Source of the DNA: Candidatus Moraniibacteriota bacterium
Lineage (GTDB): Bacteria > Patescibacteriota > Minisyncoccia > Moranbacterales > GWC2-37-73
Direction of reading: 5' to 3'
DNA length: 64,000 nucleotides
Assembly: GCA_036845785.1 (NCBI GenBank)
Contig: DAIUDF010000002.1
Span: forward strand, 4,552-68,551
The translations under genes were made by a program, and so were the position numbers. The notes below the pieces were generated by a model, which ran no database searches, was not told the DNA's origin, and was given only the letters and a program-made list of their open reading frames with translations. The number at the start of each line of letters is the position of its first letter. The first letter of the stretch is position 1. Shown here one piece after another: positions 809 to 43,100 of the stretch.

Positions 809-1174
809 ATGACTGAAACAAAAAGCAAAAATAAATATGATCTAGAAGAAAGAACTTCTAAATTTGGAGAGAACACAATATTATTCTGCAGAAAAATACG
901 TCAAGATACGATTACTAAGCCATTAATTTCTCAGTTAGTACGTTCTGCTACAAGTGTCGGAGCAAATTATGTGGAAGCCAATGGCGCAAGTTCGAAAAAA
1001 GATTTTAAAAACAAAATACATATTTGCAAAAAGGAGGCTCAAGAAAGCAAGCACTGGTTTAATATGCTTGCAATTGCTTATCCTGAAAGCATAAATGACG
1101 CAGAAAGATTACAAAAAGAAACGCAAGAACTAATTTTGATTTTTGGAAAAATTATTTCAACATTAAGAAATTAG
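809..1174 (+). CDS. four-helix-bundle protein (23S rRNA intervening-sequence protein family, TIGR02436-like)
   Basis: Family-typical motifs 'SVGANYVEA', 'KKDF', 'ICKKEAQESKHW'; ~120 aa. Confidence 0.6.
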   Translation: MTETKSKNKYDLEERTSKFGENTILFCRKIRQDTITKPLISQLVRSATSVGANYVEANGASSKKDFKNKIHICKKEAQESKHWFNMLAIAYPESINDAERLQKETQELILIFGKIISTLRN

Positions 1175-2496: not shown

Positions 2497-2682
2497 CAGG
2501 AAACATTTTTATATTTGAAATTACATCTTAAAACAGGAAAGATGGCCACTATTTGCCCCAAAACGACATTTCTTATATAATAAGAAAGGAGTTTTTTAGC
2601 CTAATTTTAACAAAAAATTCCTTAGGAAGCGAAATAATAATTAATCAAAAGTAAGCTTGGAGTCCTTAATAATAGGGGCCCA

Positions 2683-2710
2683 ATCTTATTTAACAGGGTC
2701 AATGGAAAAG
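2683..2710 (+). repeat. copy 1 of the 'AATCTTATTTAACAGGGTNAATGGAAAA' motif, overlapping the GT2 start codon
   Basis: Same motif as on the minus strand at 30294-30320 (one mismatch over 28 nt); core TTATTTAACAGGG also at 30346 and 30484. Confidence 0.7.
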
Positions 2711-3711: not shown

Positions 3712-5040
3712 ATGAAGATTGCAGTCATTGGAACAGGTTATGTGGGTTCAGTTACCGGTGCATGTTTTGCCGAAATGGGCAATAATGTGGTTTGTGTCGA
3801 CAAAGATCAAAAAAAAGTGGATCAATTTGCCAGCGGCAAAGTTCCTTTGCATGAAAACGGCTTGGATGAAATTGTTGAACGCAACTTGAAGAATAAAAAC
3901 CTTTCCTTCACTACAAATTTGGAGGAAGCGATCAAGGAAAATGACATTATTTTTATTGCAGTTGGAACTCCTCCAAATGAAGATGGTAGTGCAGATCTCA
4001 GCCATGTTTTGGATGTTGCAAAATCAATCGGGCAAACAATGGACCACCCTTTGATTATCATTGACAAATCTACGGTTCCAGTCGGTACGGCTGAGTTAGT
4101 CAGGAAAACTATCTCTGGTGAACTTGAAAAGCGTGGCGAAAAAATCGAATTCAATGTTGTCAGCAATCCAGAATTTTTGGCGCAAGGAACAGCCGTCAAG
4201 GATTTTTTAGAGCCAAGCCGGATTGTTGTCGGATCAGATAATGCTGAAACCATAAAAATATTGCAGGATATGTATGCTCCGTTTACCCGCCGAGAGGGCA
4301 GGTTTTTTGCCATGGATCAAAAAACAGCTGAAATTGTTAAATATGCTTCCAATTGTTTCTTGGCGGCCAAAATTTCTGTCAATAATGAACTGGCAAACAT
4401 CTGCGCCAAGGCTGGGGCTGATTTTGACAATGTCCGCAAAGCCATGGGCGCAGATCCAAGAATCGGAGAACCTTTTATGTATGCCGGTCCTGGATTTGGA
4501 GGCTCATGCTTTCCAAAAGACGTAAAAGCTCTAATAAAAACTGCTAAAGATCTAGGATATGATGCTGAAATGTTCAGGCAAACATTAGTTACAAATGAAA
4601 AACAAAAATTCGTTTTGTCTCAAATGGTTATTGATAAATTTGGAGAAGATCTGAAAGGCAAAACATTCTCTGTTTGGGGGCTGGCTTTCAAGGCAGGCAC
4701 GGATGATATGCGCGAATCTTCAGCGCTGACAATCATTAACGAACTTATTAAGCACGGCGCTAAGATCCAGGCTTATGATCCGGAAGCTATGCATATGGCC
4801 AAGTGGCCGGAATATTTTGGCGATAATCCAAACATAACCTATCTTGAAGACAAATATAGCGTGCTAAAAGATGCCGATGCCTTGCTTGTTGTGACTGAAT
4901 GGAAAGATTTCAGGGCGCCTGATTTTGAAGAAATTAAAAAACTTTTGCATCGTCCCGTGATTTTTGACGGTCGTCTGCTTTATGATCCGAAAAAAATGAA
5001 AGAACTCGGGTTTGAGTATAAATCGATAGGAAGAGGGTAG
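3712..5040 (+). CDS. ugd: UDP-glucose 6-dehydrogenase
   Basis: N-terminal 'IAVIGTGYVGSVTGACFAEMG' Rossmann motif and the catalytic 'GFGGSCFPKD' signature of the UDP-glucose/GDP-mannose dehydrogenase family; 442 aa. Confidence 0.8.
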   Translation: MKIAVIGTGYVGSVTGACFAEMGNNVVCVDKDQKKVDQFASGKVPLHENGLDEIVERNLKNKNLSFTTNLEEAIKENDIIFIAVGTPPNEDGSADLSHVLDVAKSIGQTMDHPLIIIDKSTVPVGTAELVRKTISGELEKRGEKIEFNVVSNPEFLAQGTAVKDFLEPSRIVVGSDNAETIKILQDMYAPFTRREGRFFAMDQKTAEIVKYASNCFLAAKISVNNELANICAKAGADFDNVRKAMGADPRIGEPFMYAGPGFGGSCFPKDVKALIKTAKDLGYDAEMFRQTLVTNEKQKFVLSQMVIDKFGEDLKGKTFSVWGLAFKAGTDDMRESSALTIINELIKHGAKIQAYDPEAMHMAKWPEYFGDNPNITYLEDKYSVLKDADALLVVTEWKDFRAPDFEEIKKLLHRPVIFDGRLLYDPKKMKELGFEYKSIGRG

Positions 5041-20915: not shown

Positions 20916-23546
20916 TTAGTACATCAAAACCGCGACCGGTTCCATTTTGGCCACAACATTGATTATATTGTTTTCTTCCAAACCGCTTATAACTTTTTCT
21001 ACATCTTTATAATACGAACTATCCTGCAAAATCACGCCTTTGGAGGCAGCGTTATATAATTTCACCTTGCTTTGCTGCATTTTTTGGAAGAGTTCTTTTT
21101 TGTTCTTGGCGGCATTTTCTTGGTGGTGTTTGCGGCGTCCGGTGCCATGCGGAGCTGAAAAAAATGTTGATTCATTGTTGTCCGTGCCAACACCGATGTA
21201 GGCAGCAGTGCTCATGGAAGAGGGAATAAAGACCGGTTCGCCGGTTTCTTTGAAAAGCGGATGATCTTGCATGCGGGCGGGTCCGAAGGCGCGCACACTG
21301 CCGTTCCGGTGCACCCACACATTCTGGCCGAAATGATTTTCTTTTTCGATAGAAATATGGGTTGTGTCATACAGAAGATCAAGTTCGACTTGCTTACCGA
21401 AAACTTTTTCCAAAGCATTGTCTAAATGATGGGTTATAACAATTCTGTTGGCAAACCCAAAATTGGCAGCAGCACGATGTGCGTTCCAAAACATCCGTCC
21501 TTCCATAGAATCATCTTCGTAACCGAAAAATTCCTCCTTGTTTTTATAAGCTTCAATTTTTTTGGCCAAGCGCTGATAAACTTTTTTCATCTGGCTGCCG
21601 AAAAAAGTGGTGCCGATTTTCAAAACAATCTGCTGGCTCAGGTGTTCTTTCTTTTTGGGGGTGTACATATAGGAAGCATATTGGCCCATTAGGCCGCTGC
21701 CGGTGTGGATCAAAAAAACATACTGGCCGGTTTTGAGGCCGAATTTTTCAGCAATTTCCGGATTTTTAATTTCCGATATTTTCATGAGATCCAGAAAATG
21801 ATTGCCGGCTGCGCCTAAAATTCCCAGGCGGTAGCTGCCAATTTTTATGAAAAGTTCCGGCACAGAATCCAGAATGTCGCGGCAGCCAGCTGCTTCATCC
21901 CGGAAAAAATTTCCATTGGCAAAAGCGTTTGTAATTTCGTTTTTTGTGCGGATCTTGAAATGATCTAGCAAAGGAGCAGCGCCCGCAAAACATATATTCA
22001 AGGCTGTGCGGTAGGGCACCGGAGTGCCTATGTATTTTTTAGTCGGAACGACTTTAACTAATTCCTGAAAAAGCCGGTCAATACTTTCTGAAGTAACTTC
22101 ATTGTCAAACAAATTAGTTTTGACAAGCCTCATGCCGCAGTTGGGAGCAGTGTCGTTGATTTGCGGCAAGAAAAATTTTTCAGTTGCGACCACGCTGCCG
22201 GTGGGAACTTTGCGTCCTTTTTTGGAATGGACATCGCTCATTTCGGCGACGTGATGGAAAAGGCGCTGGTCTCCCGCCAAGGATTCAATTTCAGAAAGCG
22301 TTTTATCACTGGGCAACAAATCATCAGAAACATGCAAAACGGCCGGAATTTTCATTTTTTCGGTTCGGAGTTCTTTTTTATTGGCGCTCAGGGAATTGAG
22401 TTTATAGGCGGATTCCATAATATTATCTTTCAAAAATTTGTTATAAATATTTTTGTATTGTTCGGCCACATTTTTAATGTCAAAATTGTTCTGCACGAAC
22501 TCGCGGGCGTTTTTGCCAAGGGCAGTTCTTTTTTCCGGATTACTATAGAGATCTAAAATAGCTTCATTTAATTTTTGCACGCTGCCTTTTTCGATTCTAA
22601 CAGAGTTTTCTTCTTTTGCGAACTCCCGAAGAAGCGGCAAATCGGAAATGATGACCGGTTTTTCACAAGCCATAGCTTCAATGACAGCCAAGGGCACATC
22701 AAATTTTCCCTGCATGTTTTTGACCGGAAAAATGCTGATGTCAGCCATATTGTAAAGTTCAAAGACATCATAGAGCCCGTCATCATGAAAGGCTACACGA
22801 TTTAACAGATTATTTTGTTTGAAAATTTCAAAAACTTCTTTTTTCTTGGCTGCATCTTTCTTGTTTTTTATTCTGACAGCCAGAGAAAGCTTGGCTTCCG
22901 GAATCAACTTGGCAATTTCCAGAAAACTTTGCACCACAGTATCCATGGCATCGTTCCGGATATACTCGCCGGTGAAATTGATGATAAAATCACGGGGAGC
23001 AAAAGAATATTTTTGAAGATACTCCGGATTTTTGCCGGTGTTTTTATAAATATCAAGGTCGATGCCGGGATAGATCCTTTCCACATTGCGAAAACCCATT
23101 GCCAGCAGCTTTTTTTTGGTGTAATCGGAATAGGTTATAAGCATGTCTCCAAAAAGCATTTTCTTGATTTCGGCTTCGGAAAAAAGGTCTTCTCGCAAAG
23201 TGGCGATTGTTTGGATTGTATGAAAACGGTCTTTTTTATTTTTAATGAAATTTTTAACCAGGAATGAATTTTGCTTGGTCGGCGTGAAGAGAAAATGCAA
23301 AATGTTGAATTCTTTTTTGAAAGTTCTAAGTTTCAATATTAGCCGGACTTTTTGCCACCAGGAAAAATCGCTTTGAGTATAAATCGGTTTTTGAAGGACA
23401 GAGTCTGGCATATAGGAAAGTTCGCCTTTGGTTAAGAGGCCGATTTTAAAATCAGAAATATTTTTAGCCAGAAAAAAGGCAAAGTTTTTCGAGCCTTCAT
23501 CCCAAGGGGGAGTGATAGGGCGAGTAACAAGTAGGATTTTCTTCAT
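20916..23546 (-). CDS. fusion protein: N-terminal GT4 glycosyltransferase domain + C-terminal RtcB-like RNA-ligase domain
   Basis: Residues ~1-400 are GT4 ('FDVPLAVIEAMACEKPVIISD'). Residues ~400-886 carry RtcB hallmarks in order: 'MSDVHSKKG..PTGSV', 'NCGMRL', 'HTGSGLMGQ', 'FGFANR', 'HRNGS', 'IPSSMSTAAY', 'HGTGRR'. Single uninterrupted 886-aa frame. The track start at 23576 is TTG; the ATG at 23546 is likely. Confidence 0.55.
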   Translation of the reverse strand: MKKILLVTRPITPPWDEGSKNFAFFLAKNISDFKIGLLTKGELSYMPDSVLQKPIYTQSDFSWWQKVRLILKLRTFKKEFNILHFLFTPTKQNSFLVKNFIKNKKDRFHTIQTIATLREDLFSEAEIKKMLFGDMLITYSDYTKKKLLAMGFRNVERIYPGIDLDIYKNTGKNPEYLQKYSFAPRDFIINFTGEYIRNDAMDTVVQSFLEIAKLIPEAKLSLAVRIKNKKDAAKKKEVFEIFKQNNLLNRVAFHDDGLYDVFELYNMADISIFPVKNMQGKFDVPLAVIEAMACEKPVIISDLPLLREFAKEENSVRIEKGSVQKLNEAILDLYSNPEKRTALGKNAREFVQNNFDIKNVAEQYKNIYNKFLKDNIMESAYKLNSLSANKKELRTEKMKIPAVLHVSDDLLPSDKTLSEIESLAGDQRLFHHVAEMSDVHSKKGRKVPTGSVVATEKFFLPQINDTAPNCGMRLVKTNLFDNEVTSESIDRLFQELVKVVPTKKYIGTPVPYRTALNICFAGAAPLLDHFKIRTKNEITNAFANGNFFRDEAAGCRDILDSVPELFIKIGSYRLGILGAAGNHFLDLMKISEIKNPEIAEKFGLKTGQYVFLIHTGSGLMGQYASYMYTPKKKEHLSQQIVLKIGTTFFGSQMKKVYQRLAKKIEAYKNKEEFFGYEDDSMEGRMFWNAHRAAANFGFANRIVITHHLDNALEKVFGKQVELDLLYDTTHISIEKENHFGQNVWVHRNGSVRAFGPARMQDHPLFKETGEPVFIPSSMSTAAYIGVGTDNNESTFFSAPHGTGRRKHHQENAAKNKKELFQKMQQSKVKLYNAASKGVILQDSSYYKDVEKVISGLEENNIINVVAKMEPVAVLMY

Positions 23547-23682
23547 AATATTCAGAAAATAATTTTTAATTTCCAATTTTTAATTTTTAATCAATTTCCA
23601 ATGTTTTAGTTTAAAAATCAAATTGCTGGCGTGCTTTTTTTGGCTTATATTAGGTATTATTTATGATTTTATGTTTAAAGCA

Positions 23683-26400: not shown

Positions 26401-26475
26401 AATTTATTATTTTTTAAATTTCCAATTTCCAATGACAAATGTCAAATCAAATCCAAAATCCAAATGACAAAAGAT

Positions 26476-27600
26476 TTATTTCGAATTCGATATTTGGCCT
26501 TTATTTGACATTGGGAATTTGTCATTTGTCATTACAGCTTTTATTTCTTCCAAATATCTTTGCGAAATATGTTCCCAACTGTAATTGTCAATTATGAATT
26601 GGCGTGTTTTTTCTCCAAAAATTTCCCGTGGACTGCCTACTGCAAAAAGTTCGTTTATTTTTGAAACATATGCATTAGCATTACCGGATTCAACCAAGAA
26701 ACCATTTTGCCCGTCCTTGATTGCGTCTTTTAGCCCTTCCAGAGATGAAGCCAAGACAGGCAAACGGCAAGCACCGGCCTCAATGACAGAAATTCCAAAG
26801 CCCTCCATATCTCCGGGAATTTTGATATTCGGCTGGACAAAAAGATCAGCCGTATTAAGTAGAGCATTTCTGACTGAATCAGTGATATAGCCAAGCACGT
26901 GCACCCGGCTGTATAAATTATTTTTTTTGATCATATCAAAAATATTCTGTTTGTCCGGACCATCTCCGGCGATTATATAGATAAAATCGCTGTCCAATTT
27001 TGGCATGACATTATCAATAAACCAGGCCACACCTTTTCTTTTGGCCAAGCGTCCGGAAGTGAGCAGAATTTTTTTGCCAGCCACTGTTTGTTTGATGATT
27101 TTTTCCAGATTTTCACGGCAAGAATCAACCAGATGTTTTTCAGTATCAACGCCATTGGGAATAAAAACAATCTTATTTTCCGAAATTCCTTTTTCTTTGG
27201 CAGTTTTTATGGTCTCATTGCCAACAGCAATAAATTTGTCAATTTTTTTCATAAAAATTCCTACCCATATTTTTTGATAGATAGGATTTTTCCAAGTCAG
27301 ATCCAAACCGTGAGCAATTGCTACAACTGGTTTTTTGCTGCCAAAAAGTTTTAGCCTCCAGGCGACATTAGCCAAGATGCAACTGCCCAAAACAACCACA
27401 TCATATTTTCGAGACGATAAAACAGCGCGGATAGTGGTGTACGCCAAAAAAAATGGAATCAGCCATCTTTTTTTGTTAGCGATCAATTTCACTTCCGTTT
27501 GTTTAGAAAGCCACGTTGAAAGCTCAAAATTGTGCGTTTCAACCCCGCCCACAATTGGTGGAAATGTGTGGGAAATAAACAAAATTCTTGGTTTGTCCAT
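26476..27600 (-). CDS. glycosyltransferase family 4
   Basis: 'ISVIEAGACRLPVLASSLEGLKDAIKDGQNGFLV' and the N-terminal 'ILFISHTFPPIVGGVE'. Confidence 0.7.
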   Translation of the reverse strand: MDKPRILFISHTFPPIVGGVETHNFELSTWLSKQTEVKLIANKKRWLIPFFLAYTTIRAVLSSRKYDVVVLGSCILANVAWRLKLFGSKKPVVAIAHGLDLTWKNPIYQKIWVGIFMKKIDKFIAVGNETIKTAKEKGISENKIVFIPNGVDTEKHLVDSCRENLEKIIKQTVAGKKILLTSGRLAKRKGVAWFIDNVMPKLDSDFIYIIAGDGPDKQNIFDMIKKNNLYSRVHVLGYITDSVRNALLNTADLFVQPNIKIPGDMEGFGISVIEAGACRLPVLASSLEGLKDAIKDGQNGFLVESGNANAYVSKINELFAVGSPREIFGEKTRQFIIDNYSWEHISQRYLEEIKAVMTNDKFPMSNKGQISNSK

Positions 27601-29013: not shown

Positions 29014-30294
29014 CTAGTGTCCTATTCCTTTATACAGTATACCATGTTTTTCTATTTCTTCCTTATTGAGCGCGTTCATGCCATCGACAAGCACTTTGAT
29101 GCCGTGTTTCTTGAAGAGGACCGGATCAGTTTCCAAAAATTCTTTGTGGTTGGTGGCTAAAATCAATGCGTCTGATTTTTCCAATAGTTCTTCTAGGGTT
29201 GCCACAGTTGAATGTTCTTTGGTGTACGGATCAAAAACAAGAACATTAGCCTCGTGGCGCTTCAAATGCTTAATTATTTTAATTACCGGTGATTCGCGAA
29301 GATCAGCAATGTTAGCCTTGTATGAAATTCCCAAAATTCCAATGTTTGTTCCATTGAGCGGCATTTTAACTTTATTGAGAGCGTCCTGCAAAATTTCCAC
29401 CGTATATTCCGGCATAGAATTATTGACTTTGCGGGCAATTTTCAAAAATTCATGGTCAAAACCGGAAGCTTTGGCTCTTTCAATGAGATAATATGGGTCA
29501 ACCGGGATGCAGTGTCCGCCCACTCCGCGGCTTGGCCAATGGGGCATGAAAGCAAAGGGTTTGGTTGAAGCACCTTTGATCACATCTACAATATCAATAT
29601 CCAGTATATCAAAAGATTTTGCCAGTTCATTCACAAAAGCCAGGTTTACATCGCGGAAGGAATTTTCCATGATTTTGACGGCTTCAGCTTCGCGGATGGA
29701 TTTCATCGGCATAATTTGTCCGTCAATAACTTTTTCATAAAATTCTACGGCTTGATCCAAGCCCTTCTTTGTGAAAGAACCGACAACGCGGGGAATGTTA
29801 GTGACATTCCATTTTGGATCGCCAGGATTGATTCTTTCCGGGCAATGCGCCAACTCATAATCTTTGCCAATTTCATAGCCGGCTTCATCAAACATTGGTT
29901 TAATGACTTCTTCACAAACACCGGGGTTGATGGTGGATTCAATGATAATTAATTGTCCGGGTTTTAGATTTTTCACAATCGCTTCGTTGGCAACTTTTAC
30001 CGGCGCGAGATCGGGAAAATAATTTTCATCAATCGGAGTCGGTACGCACATAATGACAATGTCGCATTTCTTGATTATAGACGGATCATCGGTAGCGGTA
30101 ATTTTTACTTTTGGCAGGTTTTCATTCAGAAATTCTTCATTAATGGTGGTTTTTCCGGCATTAATCAGGTCATTTTTTTTGGTGTCGTTTTCGAGTCCAT
30201 AAACTTCATAGCCCTTGAGGGCGCATTGAACAGCCAGTGGAAGACCGACATAACCCAAGCCGATGATGCAGACTTTTTTAGATTTGTTTTCCAT
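29014..30294 (-). CDS. nucleotide-sugar dehydrogenase (UDP-N-acetyl-mannosamine/glucosamine 6-dehydrogenase family)
   Basis: 'VCIIGLGYVGLPLAV' Rossmann motif and the catalytic Cys region 'GVGGHCIPVDP'; 426 aa. Confidence 0.7.
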   Translation of the reverse strand: MENKSKKVCIIGLGYVGLPLAVQCALKGYEVYGLENDTKKNDLINAGKTTINEEFLNENLPKVKITATDDPSIIKKCDIVIMCVPTPIDENYFPDLAPVKVANEAIVKNLKPGQLIIIESTINPGVCEEVIKPMFDEAGYEIGKDYELAHCPERINPGDPKWNVTNIPRVVGSFTKKGLDQAVEFYEKVIDGQIMPMKSIREAEAVKIMENSFRDVNLAFVNELAKSFDILDIDIVDVIKGASTKPFAFMPHWPSRGVGGHCIPVDPYYLIERAKASGFDHEFLKIARKVNNSMPEYTVEILQDALNKVKMPLNGTNIGILGISYKANIADLRESPVIKIIKHLKRHEANVLVFDPYTKEHSTVATLEELLEKSDALILATNHKEFLETDPVLFKKHGIKVLVDGMNALNKEEIEKHGILYKGIGH

Positions 30295-30295
30295 T

Positions 30296-30500
30296 TACCC
30301 TGTTAAATAAGATTTGTTACTCTTTAGGCTTAAATCTTTTTAGTTATTTAACAGGGTGAATCCCGTTAAATAAGATTTGTGCCTCTCCTTTAGGAACAAC
30401 TTATTTTTAATTAATTTTTCTAAATTTACTCGCCCCGTCATTTTAGTAATAAAATCTTAATTTTAATTTCTCAGAAATTAAAATTATTTAACAGGGTGAA
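30296..30500. repeat. cluster of four copies of the TTATTTAACAGGG core motif in both orientations
   Basis: Copies at 30298-30320 (-), 30343-30360 (+), 30362-30385 (-, variant AACGGG) and 30481-30499 (+). Also a 15-16 nt direct repeat TTAAATAAGATTTGT at 30303 and 30366. Confidence 0.7.
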
Positions 30501-30602
30501 TATTGTTGTTTATAAATTACCTTTCATATAATAAAGCATTTTTAAAGTTTATACAAGATTAAGAGATTGTGTCCTTTTCGTTTTGGCTGAAATGGGATAT
30601 AA

Positions 30603-42637: not shown

Positions 42638-42695
42638 ATTTACCCTGCCAAATTTCGCCAAAGGCGGAACAACAGAGTTAAATTCAACAAGACAT

Positions 42696-43100
42696 ATGAC
42701 ATCTAAAACAAAATTAATAAAAACAGTCTATCTTTATCTGATAGCGGCAGTCAGCTTGATTTTTGTAGCCGTAGGAATCGGAAGAATTTTGAATACAGGA
42801 ATGAAATATTATCTTTTTCCGGAAGCTGAGAAAAAAAGTTATTATGAGTGCAATAATCAACCCCCAGTAGCTGCAGTTATTTCCAAGGAAGGGGCTACAA
42901 CAGAACAAAAAGTCCAGATAGACGAACTGCTGGCTGACTATCAGAACTGGAAAGAAAATCAAACTGGCGACAAATGTATAGTCCCGGCTAGACAAAACAA
43001 CATCGTAGATGCGATGACTATGGTTATAATTGCCGTTCCGATTTGCTGGATTCACTGGATGTTTATTCGCAGAAGCAAAAAAGAAGAGAATGAAGAATAA
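42696..43100 (+). CDS. hypothetical membrane protein
   Basis: Two TM segments; 134 aa. Confidence 0.35.
   Translation: MTSKTKLIKTVYLYLIAAVSLIFVAVGIGRILNTGMKYYLFPEAEKKSYYECNNQPPVAAVISKEGATTEQKVQIDELLADYQNWKENQTGDKCIVPARQNNIVDAMTMVIIAVPICWIHWMFIRRSKKEENEE

Follow-up and report, generated by a model that had tools for sequence, protein, structure and literature searches.

Background

The closest described systems are MITEs with their parent insertion sequences, such as Correia/CREE of Neisseria and ERIC/RU of enterobacteria, and the REP/REPIN sequences with their RAYT enzymes. Like MITEs, the elements described here end in inverted repeats, are found many times over between genes, range in size from a parent with a coding region down to short derivatives without one, are probably co-transcribed with their neighbours and are present or absent between close relatives. 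Three of the features by which insertion sequences and MITEs are recognised were found: terminal inverted repeats, copies at unrelated loci of one and of different genomes, and presence/absence at orthologous sites. The differences lie in the protein, which is an 84-aa GIY-YIG nuclease and not a DDE, HUH or serine/tyrosine transposase; in its ORF, which sits inside a folded junction and has its last codons in common with the right repeat; in the target, where no clear duplication is seen; and in the 12-bp arm, which is identical across several phyla according to the record titles. REP/RAYT systems likewise comprise dispersed extragenic palindromes and a small nuclease gene flanked by inverted palindromes, and in both cases the copies without an ORF are presumed to be mobilised in trans. 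However, RAYT belongs to the HUH/Y1 enzymes and a REP is a plain GC-rich hairpin specific to one species, whereas here we find a GIY-YIG protein, a three-way junction and an arm common to distant lineages; the flanked gene does not encode an HUH/Y1 (IS200/IS605-like) transposase.

The inverted terminal repeats of AAV, a parvovirus, are T-shaped hairpins and are recognised and nicked by a dedicated nuclease, the HUH protein Rep. They too are built of a long closing stem around two small palindromes, forming a three-way junction. The likeness is one of shape only, the AAV nuclease belonging to the HUH family and its repeats forming the ends of a linear viral genome instead of a chromosomal insertion. 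We know of no GIY-YIG nuclease acting as a transposase. The nearest proteins, those of UPF0213 (PDB 1zg2, 1ywl), share with the protein found here the Pfam GIY-YIG domain, sequence and fold matches and the conserved residues, but the subfamily carried by the elements adds a lysine/arginine-rich tail, predicted to be disordered, whose codons double as the stems P3 and P1 of the element. No mobile-element role for UPF0213 is described in a survey of GIY-YIG proteins (PMC1564403), and our literature searches found no published description of the element itself.

A motif repeated in the window

The window, that is, the whole stretch of 64,000 nucleotides of Candidatus Moraniibacteriota DNA analysed here, contains two copies of a 28-nt stretch, AATCTTATTTAACAGGGT[C/A]AATGGAAAA, at 2682-2709 (+) and 30314-30287 (-), identical at 27 of 28 positions. 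The ATG of the first copy is the start of a real GT2 gene (PF00535) and that of the second the start of a gene of the UDP-glucose/GDP-mannose-dehydrogenase family. The core TTATTTAACAGGG is repeated exactly at 30344-30356 (+) and 30484-30496 (+) and, with 2 mismatches, at 30361-30373 (-). A direct repeat, GTTAAATAAGATTTGT, links 30299-30323 to 30362-30386, inverted pairs are also found, and the motif is itself partly palindromic (ATTTA-N6-TAAAT). An earlier note on this DNA had described a near-identical motif at the starts of two sugar genes, recurrence of its core around 30343-30499 with a variant on the minus strand, and inverted pairs together with a direct repeat; all of this is borne out by sequence search. 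It had also considered that the motif might be a compositional artefact, against which stands its copy number: an 18-mer allowing up to 3 mismatches matches the window 4 times against 0.18 expected (a count reached in 0 of 100 shuffles), and a 13-mer allowing up to 2 mismatches matches 10 times against 3.3 expected.

The motif most probably represents the inverted-repeat ends of small, palindromic insertion elements that form a family. There are 3-4 copies in the window (Table 1), all of them ORF-less and decayed, and no intact nuclease gene of the family.

Table 1. Element copies and associated features in the window (positions are those of the window)
Feature	Position	Strand	Basis
Isolated right repeat AATCTTATTTAACAGGGTCA, slightly decayed (truncated right end)	2682..2701	+	Sequence; orthologue comparison
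Whole insertion in the dehydrogenase 5'UTR: tandem ORF-less elements E1 (~141 nt) and E2 (69 nt)	30293..30501	-	Comparison with L122
E2 right inverted repeat CAAATCTTATTTAACAGGGTAAAT	30293..30316	-	Sequence; empty site in L122
E2 left inverted repeat ATTCACCCTGTTAAATAA, adjoining the E1 end head-to-tail	30344..30361	-	Sequence
E1 degenerate right repeat CAAATCTTATTTAACGGGA, end of the C-terminus relic	30379-30361	-	Sequence
Relic of the GIY-YIG C-terminus, translation KLFLKERHKSYLTG	30361..30402	-	tblastn, E = 0.73, not significant alone
E1 P2 hairpin AATTTTAATTTCT-GA-GAAATTAAAATT	30459..30485	-	Inverted repeat, fold, comparison with long and short elements
E1 left inverted repeat (IR-L), ATTCACCCTGTTAAATAA in the dehydrogenase sense	30484..30501	-	Sequence
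Dehydrogenase promoter candidate (-35 TTGTAT, -10 TATTAT), 5' of the insertion	30528..30555	-	Conserved block
Probable decayed mini copy, ATTTACCCTGCCAAAT-TTCGCCAAAGGCGGAA-CAACAGAGTTAAAT	42638..42685	+	R1 match and sequence

Anatomy and distribution of the element family

The core, ACCCTGTTAAAT/ATTTAACAGGGT, forms the invariant 12-bp closing stem (P1) of a palindromic three-way junction. In the reading direction of the downstream gene, an element consists of ATT(C/T)-ACCCTGTTAAAT (the 5' arm of P1), the P2 hairpin with AATT...AATT at its base, the P3 stem and ATTTAACAGGGT-(A/G)AAT (the 3' arm of P1). The fold predicted for single-stranded DNA, extruded DNA or RNA is a perfect three-way junction. 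While the sequence of P1 does not change, those of P2 and P3 vary with their pairing kept: over 14 mini copies 95.8% of cells are paired and 11 pairs show compensatory changes, a number reached in 0 of 500 shuffles and to be compared with 2-5 in slid controls, and P1 was never varied by compensatory change. The stems are perfect, without conserved bulges. Several loops read GCGAAGC, which is an unusually stable DNA mini-hairpin.

Scanning the genome collection with the 18-mer gave at least 118 loci. For nearly every match listed an inverted partner lies 20-50, 120-150 or about 270-290 nt away, and 116 copies among the matches listed have paired terminal inverted repeats, ATT(C/T)ACCCTGTTAAAT ... 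ATTTAACAGGGT(A/G)AAT. The elements fall into three size classes, of about 46-65 nt, about 130-155 nt and about 285 nt, and also occur in tandem arrays. The record titles of these loci (at least 118) name Patescibacteria and several other phyla, and at least 3 loci each come from DNVR01, JAHJJO01, JAGMCL01 and JAUXGF01. Several loci titled as non-Patescibacteria are low in G+C, as candidate-phyla-radiation genomes are.

In about half of the 130-290-nt copies the ATG of a gene lies 2-9 nt 3' of the right arm, and an ATG within 6 nt was counted at 20 of 103 right arms against 3 of 103 left arms; a sub-family (L039, L074, L103) has the gene start adjoining the opposite end of the element. Elements and flanking genes are co-directional about 3:1. 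Elsewhere than in the window, the genes found 3' of elements encode L19, L16, S3, L24, TyrRS, ArgRS, IleRS, IF2, FolD, HrcA, AtpF, FBA, DnaG and others, and in L031 and L055 element copies adjoin 23S rRNA genes.

The GIY-YIG nuclease gene of the long elements

The long form, of about 285 nt, contains a stand-alone ORF of 84-86 aa of the Slx1/UPF0213 type, so that full-length copies with the same ends as the ORF-less ones encode a GIY-YIG nuclease. The ORF matches Pfam GIY-YIG (PF01541) with an E-value of 4.7e-15 and the PDB sequences 1zg2 and 1ywl with E-values of 1.4e-4 and 1.6e-3. The best fold matches are UPF0213 BH0048 (1zg2) and Slx1 (7cq3), with a TM of 0.67 and an rmsd of 2.0; owing to the small size of the domain, Foldseek gives them weak E-values, from 1.9e-3 upwards. 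The Y..Y, YxG, R...H and E residues are conserved: among the best 120 homologues, the motif Y.Y..(F/Y)xG.T.NL..R...H is present in 104 and YYE in 115. The ORF thus encodes a GIY-YIG domain with the motif residues and the corresponding fold. The flanked gene matched Pfam GIY-YIG and, weakly, T5orf172, and no Y1 transposase family; NCBIfam has no model for the protein.

The ORF runs through the junction: the P2 loop contains its N-terminus, its codons NLKLRFE form the 3' side of P2 and the 5' side of P3, and its codons LKSYLTG-stop form the 3' sides of P3 and P1, the last of them (KSYLTG-stop) being the right arm. The C-terminal tail of 14 residues (GKMFIKNRLKSYLTG) is the lysine/arginine-rich, predicted disordered segment whose codons double as the P3 and P1 arms. 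Homologues form 6400 clusters; among the 120 best, KSYLTG is the C-terminal sequence of 107. Two homologues picked without reference to the motif both have IR-L about 20 nt before their ATG and IR-R at their stop. Across 9 diverged genes the right arm uses a single codon each for Leu, Lys, Tyr, Leu and Gly, whereas in the remainder of these genes 3-6 codons are used at invariant Leu positions and 2-3 at invariant Gly positions. The shorter members (130-155 and 46-65 nt) keep the junction and have lost or replaced the coding loops, and recognisable ORF fragments are left in them.

Such fragments can be followed in the tandem insertion of the window. The IR-L of E1 matches, in sequence and position, the IR-L found about 20 nt 5' of intact GIY-YIG ORFs (L037, L016, L202, L212). 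To the 3' side of its P2 hairpin, TTAAGATTTT is a relic of the GIY-YIG codons N-L-K-L-R-F, and the translation KLFLKERHKSYLTG is read as a relic because it stands at the element position where most of the best homologues end in KSYLTG. E2 is matched by the covariance model R1 at 30293-30361 with 43.8 bits and an E-value of 2.6e-9. In its right repeat the former stop of the GIY-YIG ORF is seen as TAA at 30297-30295, and the host ATG of the dehydrogenase (30294-30292) stands directly next to it. Tandem junctions like that between E1 and E2 are also found in L020, L025, L033 and L094. At the GT2 site, where the host ATG at 2702 follows directly 3' of the right repeat, a mutation has turned the stop codon into TCA, and the left repeat is gone. 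The copy near 42.6 kb, matched by R1 at 42638-42697 (-) with 19.9 bits and an E-value of 0.007, is probably a relic of an element; it is flanked by a gene for a WecG/TagA-type glycosyltransferase and by a DUF5671 gene, the ATG of the latter lying 10 nt 3' of the copy.

Occupied and empty orthologous sites

The earlier note had suggested that orthologous gene starts be aligned; in close relatives the ATG is kept and the motif is not. In L122, whose dehydrogenase has 94% protein identity, the alignment runs to about 30503 and resumes at the dehydrogenase ATG, the window being about 200 nt longer. None of the 30 closest related loci inspected has the motif 5' of the dehydrogenase orthologue, and a covariance model run over 340 kb around all 80 related dehydrogenase loci detected no element. 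Likewise, the motif is absent 5' of the GT2 orthologues L222-L229 (85-94% identity), while in L116 this position before the GT2 orthologue is occupied by a complete element of 132 nt. In L063 it is the GIY-YIG ORF of an element that is interrupted, by a nested mini copy.

Since the empty sites carry the same ATG, the start codon is host sequence. The first two codons (ATGGAA), which had been counted as part of the motif, are host coding sequence in chance agreement, because orthologues without the motif begin identically (ATGGAAAAC for the dehydrogenase, ATGGAGAAA for GT2). The proposal of a small repeat bringing its own ribosome-binding site and start codon therefore stands as regards the repeat, which is the end of an insertion element, and falls as regards the ATG; as to the binding site, a Shine-Dalgarno-like sequence precedes only 7 of the 52 window genes.

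Insertion is established by these comparisons; mobilisation would be the work of the nuclease. The junctions show short microhomologies and no clear duplication: the sole candidate for a target-site duplication, AT...AT, is self-complementary and fits duplication or extension of the inverted repeat equally well, the L063 junction has none, and the three filled/empty comparisons reveal no consistent one. When identical GIY-YIG proteins were compared across contexts, the surroundings of one never changed and those of the other differed only on the downstream side, which does not demonstrate recent transposition.

At the dehydrogenase, the tandem pair is inserted between a putative promoter and the ATG. 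The promoter candidate is a block, CTTGTA..N..TG(C/T)TTTA(A/C/T)TAT, kept in five aligned loci, and it is probably the dehydrogenase promoter. A consensus promoter scan of the region did not list this block and gave a site count not above that of shuffles.

Alternative explanations

Among the alternatives, the one that survives best, though we consider it unlikely, is that the element is a structured leader acting at the RNA level, co-opted or selected to control how the downstream gene is translated or its mRNA processed. P1 would sequester the nucleotides up to the start, and release would come from translation of the nuclease ORF or from a double-strand- or tRNA-type RNase. The dehydrogenase leader does fold far better than shuffles (-54 kcal/mol, z = -6.2) and is paired up to the AUG; the co-orientation of elements with flanking genes, the right arm adjoining the ATG in many of the longer copies, and the putative host promoter 5' of the insertion, from which the element is probably transcribed, all agree with such a role. 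However, close relatives have the same genes without the element, which is thus not needed, and in the stems G-U pairs do not outnumber A-C pairs (5 against 9). The GCGAAGC loops also speak against a selected RNA, as does Rfam 15, which at the gathering threshold gave no match other than rRNA and tRNA in the window and 20 element-bearing loci; relaxed thresholds produced weak, chance-like matches in the window and element-bearing loci (best E-value 0.11). Control of this kind would moreover be a consequence of insertion, compatible with mobility.

It is improbable that the palindromes are sites for a host Xer/dif-module or integron attC-type recombinase, with the GIY-YIG gene as mere cargo. 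The attC core has the consensus RYYYAAC/GTTRRRY, which fits the ATTTAAC/GTTAAAT held in P1, and TGTTAAAT occurs unchanged within the XerD arm of E. coli dif; microhomologies at the junctions without clear duplication would also suit such a recombinase. Yet the order of the cores is reversed, GTTAAAT coming first and ATTTAAC last in each element, the size of 46-65 nt with a perfect three-way junction is unlike attC architecture, and the 6-8-bp central region that separates the two 11-bp arms of dif is missing. The combination of features that marks integron attC sites (the order R''...R', a length of 55-140 nt, extrahelical bases, an array beside an integrase) was not found. No recombinase or integrase gene was seen among the roughly 40 window genes scanned, and an ORF built into the stems is hard to explain as cargo.

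An equally improbable reading makes the GIY-YIG gene a free-standing homing endonuclease, spread only between alleles by double-strand-break repair, and the short palindromes unrelated, terminator-like hairpins. GIY-YIG homing endonucleases are a well-known class, and rRNA genes of candidate-phyla-radiation bacteria are reported to contain non-intron insertions with GIY-YIG ORFs (PMC11270868). Homing between alleles, however, does not yield the pattern seen, in which ORF-less copies with the same invariant 12-bp arms and junction stand at many non-homologous sites and in tandem; the ORF fragments recognisable in the short forms also tie them to the nuclease gene.

Least probable is the operator or shared leader for a glycan-biosynthesis regulon proposed in the earlier note, at which a transcription factor or RNA-binding regulator would co-regulate the genes. 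What had suggested it, namely several copies of a partly palindromic motif in a divergent intergenic region and before two sugar-related genes, loses its force: the two sugar-gene neighbours carry no weight because almost all window genes are glycan-related. The motif is not conserved 5' of the orthologous dehydrogenase and GT2 genes, and it is not enriched before functionally related genes, the same end standing elsewhere before ribosomal-protein, tRNA-synthetase, IF2, FolD, HrcA and ATP-synthase genes. Next to the motif sites, no gene for a regulator was observed.

Further candidates were rejected. What looked like the alternative hairpins of a riboswitch or attenuator (segments D', C, B' and A; 1:2/3:4 versus 2:3) is simply two tandem palindromes, missing from orthologues; the likeness to the rRNA antitermination boxA (TTTAACA, with copies by 23S rRNA genes) concerns a motif present in both orientations as hairpin arms; phage-type (T3-like) promoters, sigma-70 -35 and leaderless -10 boxes are matched only in part, with a consensus scan not above shuffles; the spacing is too irregular for a CRISPR array; phage carriage is contradicted by a search of 2.9 million viral contigs, in which the 5 exact motif matches all lie inside coding sequence without an inverted partner; and for an invertible promoter (phase variation) no recombinase was found, the inverted repeats being the ends of separate tandem elements.

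Proposed mechanism and significance

Returning to the insertion-element reading, we propose that the GIY-YIG protein, whose fold comes nearest to that of the structure-specific nuclease Slx1, would recognise P1 and the junction, cut there, and mobilise its own gene as well as ORF-less copies in trans. Insertions would survive chiefly just 5' of start codons. There the element would be co-transcribed with the host gene, the nuclease stop adjoining the host ATG (TAA-ATG), so that host translation could go on by termination-reinitiation. The window copies would then be passengers and not a designed control element, although their structured leader may affect dehydrogenase expression. In its widest form, which we advance tentatively as a possibility, the proposal is that the 84-aa protein is the transposase of an unrecognised class of prokaryotic mobile elements. 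The protein may recognise the invariant 12-bp stem and the three-way junction that the flanks of its gene form in folded single-stranded or extruded DNA, cut there, and move itself and a great many ORF-less mini-palindromes. The elements would settle immediately 5' of housekeeping start codons, in candidate-phyla-radiation bacteria as well as in other phyla reached by horizontal transfer.

For the window, the motif says nothing on glycan regulation, and the match over the first two codons is a coincidence of host sequence. For annotators, the element is one that recurs at gene starts and can mislead start-codon calling and motif discovery. That it inserts at essential genes, right at their start codons and in genomes mostly without Shine-Dalgarno sequences, raises the question of how translation starts there, and the design, with the codons of an ORF serving also as the cis-acting stems of its own element, is unusually compact. 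More widely, the family may be of interest in that it links stand-alone GIY-YIG (UPF0213/Slx1-like) proteins to a repeated palindromic element, making a selfish function for them testable, and it may explain the GIY-YIG-bearing non-intron insertions in the rRNA genes of candidate-phyla-radiation bacteria.

Motif copies in the window

The two copies described in the earlier note, AATCTTATTTAACAGGGT(C/A)AATGGAAAA at 2682-2709 (+) and 30314-30287 (-), were found as given, and both adjoining ATGs are true gene starts, of a family-2 glycosyltransferase (GT2) and of a UDP-glucose/GDP-mannose dehydrogenase family protein, respectively. The exact core occurs again at 30344 (+) and 30484 (+) with a variant at 30361 (-), and the direct and inverted repeats noted there were all recovered. 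With up to 3 mismatches allowed, the 18-mer gave 4 matches in the window (G+C content 33-41%) for 0.18 expected. By their names, close homologues of the window's GT2 indicate Candidatus Moranbacteria, within Patescibacteria.

These copies belong to small palindromic elements, closed by a stem P1 whose two arms form the left and right inverted repeats, and enclosing inner stems P2 and P3. In the minus-strand sense, the dehydrogenase intergenic region holds two such elements in tandem, E1 and E2, whose four arms are the four cores previously seen as clustered. The interior of E1 after the relic TTAAGATTTT still translates to KLFLKERHKSYLTG, a tblastn match which alone is not significant (E = 0.73). 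The former stop codon TAA of E2 (30297-30295) is followed immediately by the host ATG. With the insertion, the dehydrogenase leader is strongly folded (-54 kcal/mol, z -6.2). In locus L116, the GT2 orthologue carries a complete 132-nt element at the position of the lone arm of the window. No intact GIY-YIG gene was found in the 64-kb window, and its copies are classified as ordinary in kind, namely relics of a mobile repeat.

Element copies and other features of the window
Feature	Position	Strand	Description
GT2 right-arm remnant	2682-2701	+	sole surviving arm; stop codon mutated to TCA
E1	30501-30361	-	left repeat, P2 hairpin, ORF relics, degenerate right repeat at end
E1 P2 hairpin	within 30501-30361	-	AATTTTAATTTCT-GA-GAAATTAAAATT, then relic TTAAGATTTT
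E2	30361-30293	-	69 nt: left repeat, short interior, perfect right repeat
Probable decayed mini copy	42638-42685		found by covariance model; next ATG 10 nt downstream
Palindrome	26425-26518	-	element-like frame, different stem: ATTC-CCAATGTCAAAT-AA ... ATTTGTCATTGG-AAAT; covers GT4 gene 3' end and DUF6541 gene leader
Arm-like sequence	2527-2548	+	ATCTTAAAACAGGAAAGATGG, just past upstream GT4 stop; loose likeness to right arm and ATG
Dehydrogenase family paralogue	3712-5040	+	no insertion
Dehydrogenase family paralogue	29014-30294	-	insertion
'23S rRNA intervening sequence protein' gene	809-1174	+	bAvd-like four-helix bundle
886-codon ORF	20916-23576	-	TTG start; N-terminal GT4 glycosyltransferase and C-terminal RtcB RNA-ligase domain

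The palindrome with a different stem, which the covariance model scores at 22.7 bits (E 0.0012), could belong to a diverged sister family or have arisen by chance; the short repeats around it, of the TTTGG/ATTTGTCA type, resemble the TTTGGAATTTGG-like flanks of elements in Desulfobacterales-titled loci. The arm-like sequence past the upstream GT4 stop may be what remains of a far older copy, or chance. Unless the mechanical ORF call merged two genes, the 886-codon ORF is an unusual fusion. The '23S rRNA intervening sequence protein' gene is another small variable gene of these loci: a 94% relative of the GT2 locus (L222 1740-2117) has a gene of the same family between GT2 and the second dehydrogenase, an interval in which the window lacks one.

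Insertion polymorphism at orthologous sites

The elements are present or absent at orthologous sites. Same-strain contigs are identical over both the dehydrogenase and GT2 regions. Alignment of orthologous gene starts, the check that had been proposed, found the motif upstream of none of the 30 closest (94% to about 60% identity) among 80 dehydrogenase relatives, and a covariance model run over 340 kb around all 80 loci detected no element. L122, the closest relative, can be aligned to the window across the start of the divergent glycosyltransferase, a promoter-like block that is conserved (-35 CTTGTA, -10 TA(C/T)TAT) and the first part of the leader; past it, L122 goes straight into ATGGAAAACAAATCT, and at that exact point the window has about 200 nt more. 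Likewise, the motif is missing from GT2 orthologues (85-94% identity) that have both the TATAAT promoter block and the ATG in common with the window. Since element-free orthologues keep the same ATG, the ATG and subsequent codons of both genes are host sequence, and the first codons formerly counted with the motif do not belong to it; that they agree between the two genes is a coincidence of A-rich N-terminal codons.

In locus L063 (5375-5407), a 33-nt mini copy splits an otherwise conserved full-length GIY-YIG ORF between codons TAT and GAA, so that the family also inserts into its own members. No target-site duplication was established for the elements: this junction has none, and the outer AT...AT, being self-complementary, is indistinguishable from a longer inverted repeat.

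Anatomy and covariation

The element is repeated and palindromic, with an invariant stem and covarying hairpins, and every size class follows one plan in the ORF sense: P1 5' arm (ATT(C/T)-ACCCTGTTAAAT), hairpin P2 with base AATT...AATT, stem P3, P1 3' arm (ATTTAACAGGGT-(A/G)AAT). The fold is a perfect three-way junction with zero unpaired bases at the junction. In the full-length element, the P2 loop is the N-terminal third of the ORF, codons K-N-L-K-L-R-F-E form P2-3' and P3-5', the P3 loop is the middle of the ORF, and codons L-K-S-Y-L-T-G form P3-3' and P1-3'. The size series runs from a coding form to non-coding forms: ORF pieces are still recognisable in 130-155-nt copies (KNRLKSYLTG in L073, IGLFLQKNRIKSYLTG in L116), and the P2 and P3 hairpins of 46-65-nt copies are unrelated and often GC-rich.

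Among 14 mini copies, standard pairs made up 95.8% of pair cells and compensatory double changes occurred at 11 pairs, values matched by 0 of 500 shuffles; sliding the partner by 1-3 columns left 2-5 compensatory pairs. P1 did not vary through compensatory change. The covariance model built from mini copies favoured the sense over the antisense strand by about 40 bits, which makes the order of P2 before P3 a real asymmetry. In nine diverged ORFs, the right-arm Leu, Lys, Tyr, Leu and Gly use one codon each; at invariant positions in the rest of these genes, Leu is encoded by 3-6 different codons and Gly by 2-3. The arms are therefore under constraint at the nucleic-acid level as well as at the protein level. 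G-T pairs in the stems were not commoner than A-C pairs (5 versus 9). The loop GCGAAGC, an exceptionally stable DNA mini-hairpin, ends inner hairpins of many mini copies (L004, L008, L012, L046, L067, L072, L093, L108, L112, L114) and hints at a function as folded DNA. Together, the pair counts and these loops are weak hints that the structure is important at the DNA level. No Rfam family matched the window or the element-bearing loci at the gathering threshold.

The GIY-YIG protein

Long copies contain an intact ORF of 84-86 codons (Pfam GIY-YIG, E 4.7e-15), whose end, L-K-S-Y-L-T-G-stop, is the right-hand motif copy CTCAAATCTTATTTAACAGGGTAA. At a 90% identity cut-off the protein family forms 6400 clusters, many of which share 80-90% identity, and KSYLTG is the C-terminal end in 107 of the best 120. 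Two members chosen blind to the motif both had the left repeat about 20 nt upstream of the ATG and the right repeat at the stop. The sequence matches both solved UPF0213 proteins, and the structure model (mean pLDDT 79) lies nearest to UPF0213 BH0048 and the Slx1 nuclease domain (TM 0.67, rmsd 2.0 Å, 28% identity), followed by I-TevI and UvrC; Foldseek gave weak E-values (none below 1.9e-3), which is to be expected with a domain of only 70 residues. Disorder is predicted for the C-terminal 14 residues, the stretch encoded by P3-3' and P1-3'. Slx1 cleaves branched DNA in a structure-specific manner. Passages of a 2006 superfamily survey describe prokaryotic Slx1-like proteins as minimal stand-alone domains and define no role for them (PMC1564403).

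Distribution and neighbouring genes

An exact-match scan with TTATTTAACAGGGTNAAT, one genome per species, gave at least 118 loci. By record title, the matches listed are mostly from Patescibacteria, with others from Desulfobacterales, WOR-3, Cloacimonadota, Calditrichota, Omnitrophota and Bacteroidales; several loci titled 'Gammaproteobacteria', 'Bdellovibrionales' or 'Udaeobacter' may be mislabelled, given their 26-40% G+C. Among these matches, flanks group into recurring families and nearly every match is paired with an inverted copy at a distance of 20-50, 120-150 or about 270-290 nt, yielding 116 pairs, most in three size classes. Head-to-tail arrays like E1-E2 are common at other loci (L020, L025, L033, L094). 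A GIY-YIG protein is listed among genes predicted to have been transferred from Patescibacteria to other bacteria (PMC12455944). The viral contigs searched did not carry the element.

Some mini elements lie by rRNA genes or apparent tRNA genes: just after 23S rRNA (L055 6468-6523), just before it (L031 1197-1254), and in a spacer with flanks tRNA-gene-like by eye (L084 4860-4967). These may connect with the unexplained GIY-YIG-bearing insertions reported in rRNA genes of candidate-phyla-radiation bacteria (PMC11270868).

The element is placed in 5'UTRs beside start codons. Among the matches listed, a gene ATG lies 2-9 nt past the right arm in about half of 130-290-nt copies, and within 6 nt of the right arm in 20/103 versus the left arm in 3/103; element and neighbour are co-directional at about 3:1. 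Twenty genes starting within 9 nt of the motif in other genomes, among the matches listed, encode ribosomal proteins L19, L16, S3 and L24, Tyr-, Arg- and Ile-tRNA synthetases, IF2, FolD, HrcA, ATP synthase subunit b, fructose-bisphosphate aldolase, primase, CofD, a methyltransferase, a solute-binding protein, UPF0047 and one protein without Pfam match; only 2 of the 20 are glycan-related. The motif had been proposed as a possible operator or leader of a glycan regulon, and glycan genes are abundant throughout the window. Its absence upstream of the dehydrogenase and GT2 orthologues inspected and the mostly non-glycan genes downstream elsewhere speak strongly against this reading, and no link between motif and glycans was found. 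A ready-made ribosome-binding site had also been proposed; the AGGG of the motif is unlikely to act as one because a Shine-Dalgarno-like sequence lies within 20 nt of the ATG in only 7 of the 52 long ORFs of the window (start coordinates approximate). The start regions of these ORFs are A/T-rich.

In one locus the element directly precedes a CIRCE heat-shock operator (L039 3931-3980; TTAGCACTC-N9-GAGTGCTAA) and in another a mini element lies 8 nt upstream of hrcA (L042 2698-3492). Insertions thus also sit in regulated leaders.

Proposed mechanism

We infer that the GIY-YIG protein is directed to P1 and the junction by recognising them, and that its cutting there would mobilise its own gene and ORF-less copies. 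Insertions would persist at sites that allow co-transcription and place the nuclease stop against the host ATG, an arrangement in which ribosomes could reinitiate. The window copies would be decayed passengers, whose presence makes the leader of the dehydrogenase mRNA fold strongly. A full-text literature search, of incomplete coverage, found no prior description of the element. The family appears to be a new form of MITE/REP-like system, one that relies on a GIY-YIG nuclease and a three-way junction.
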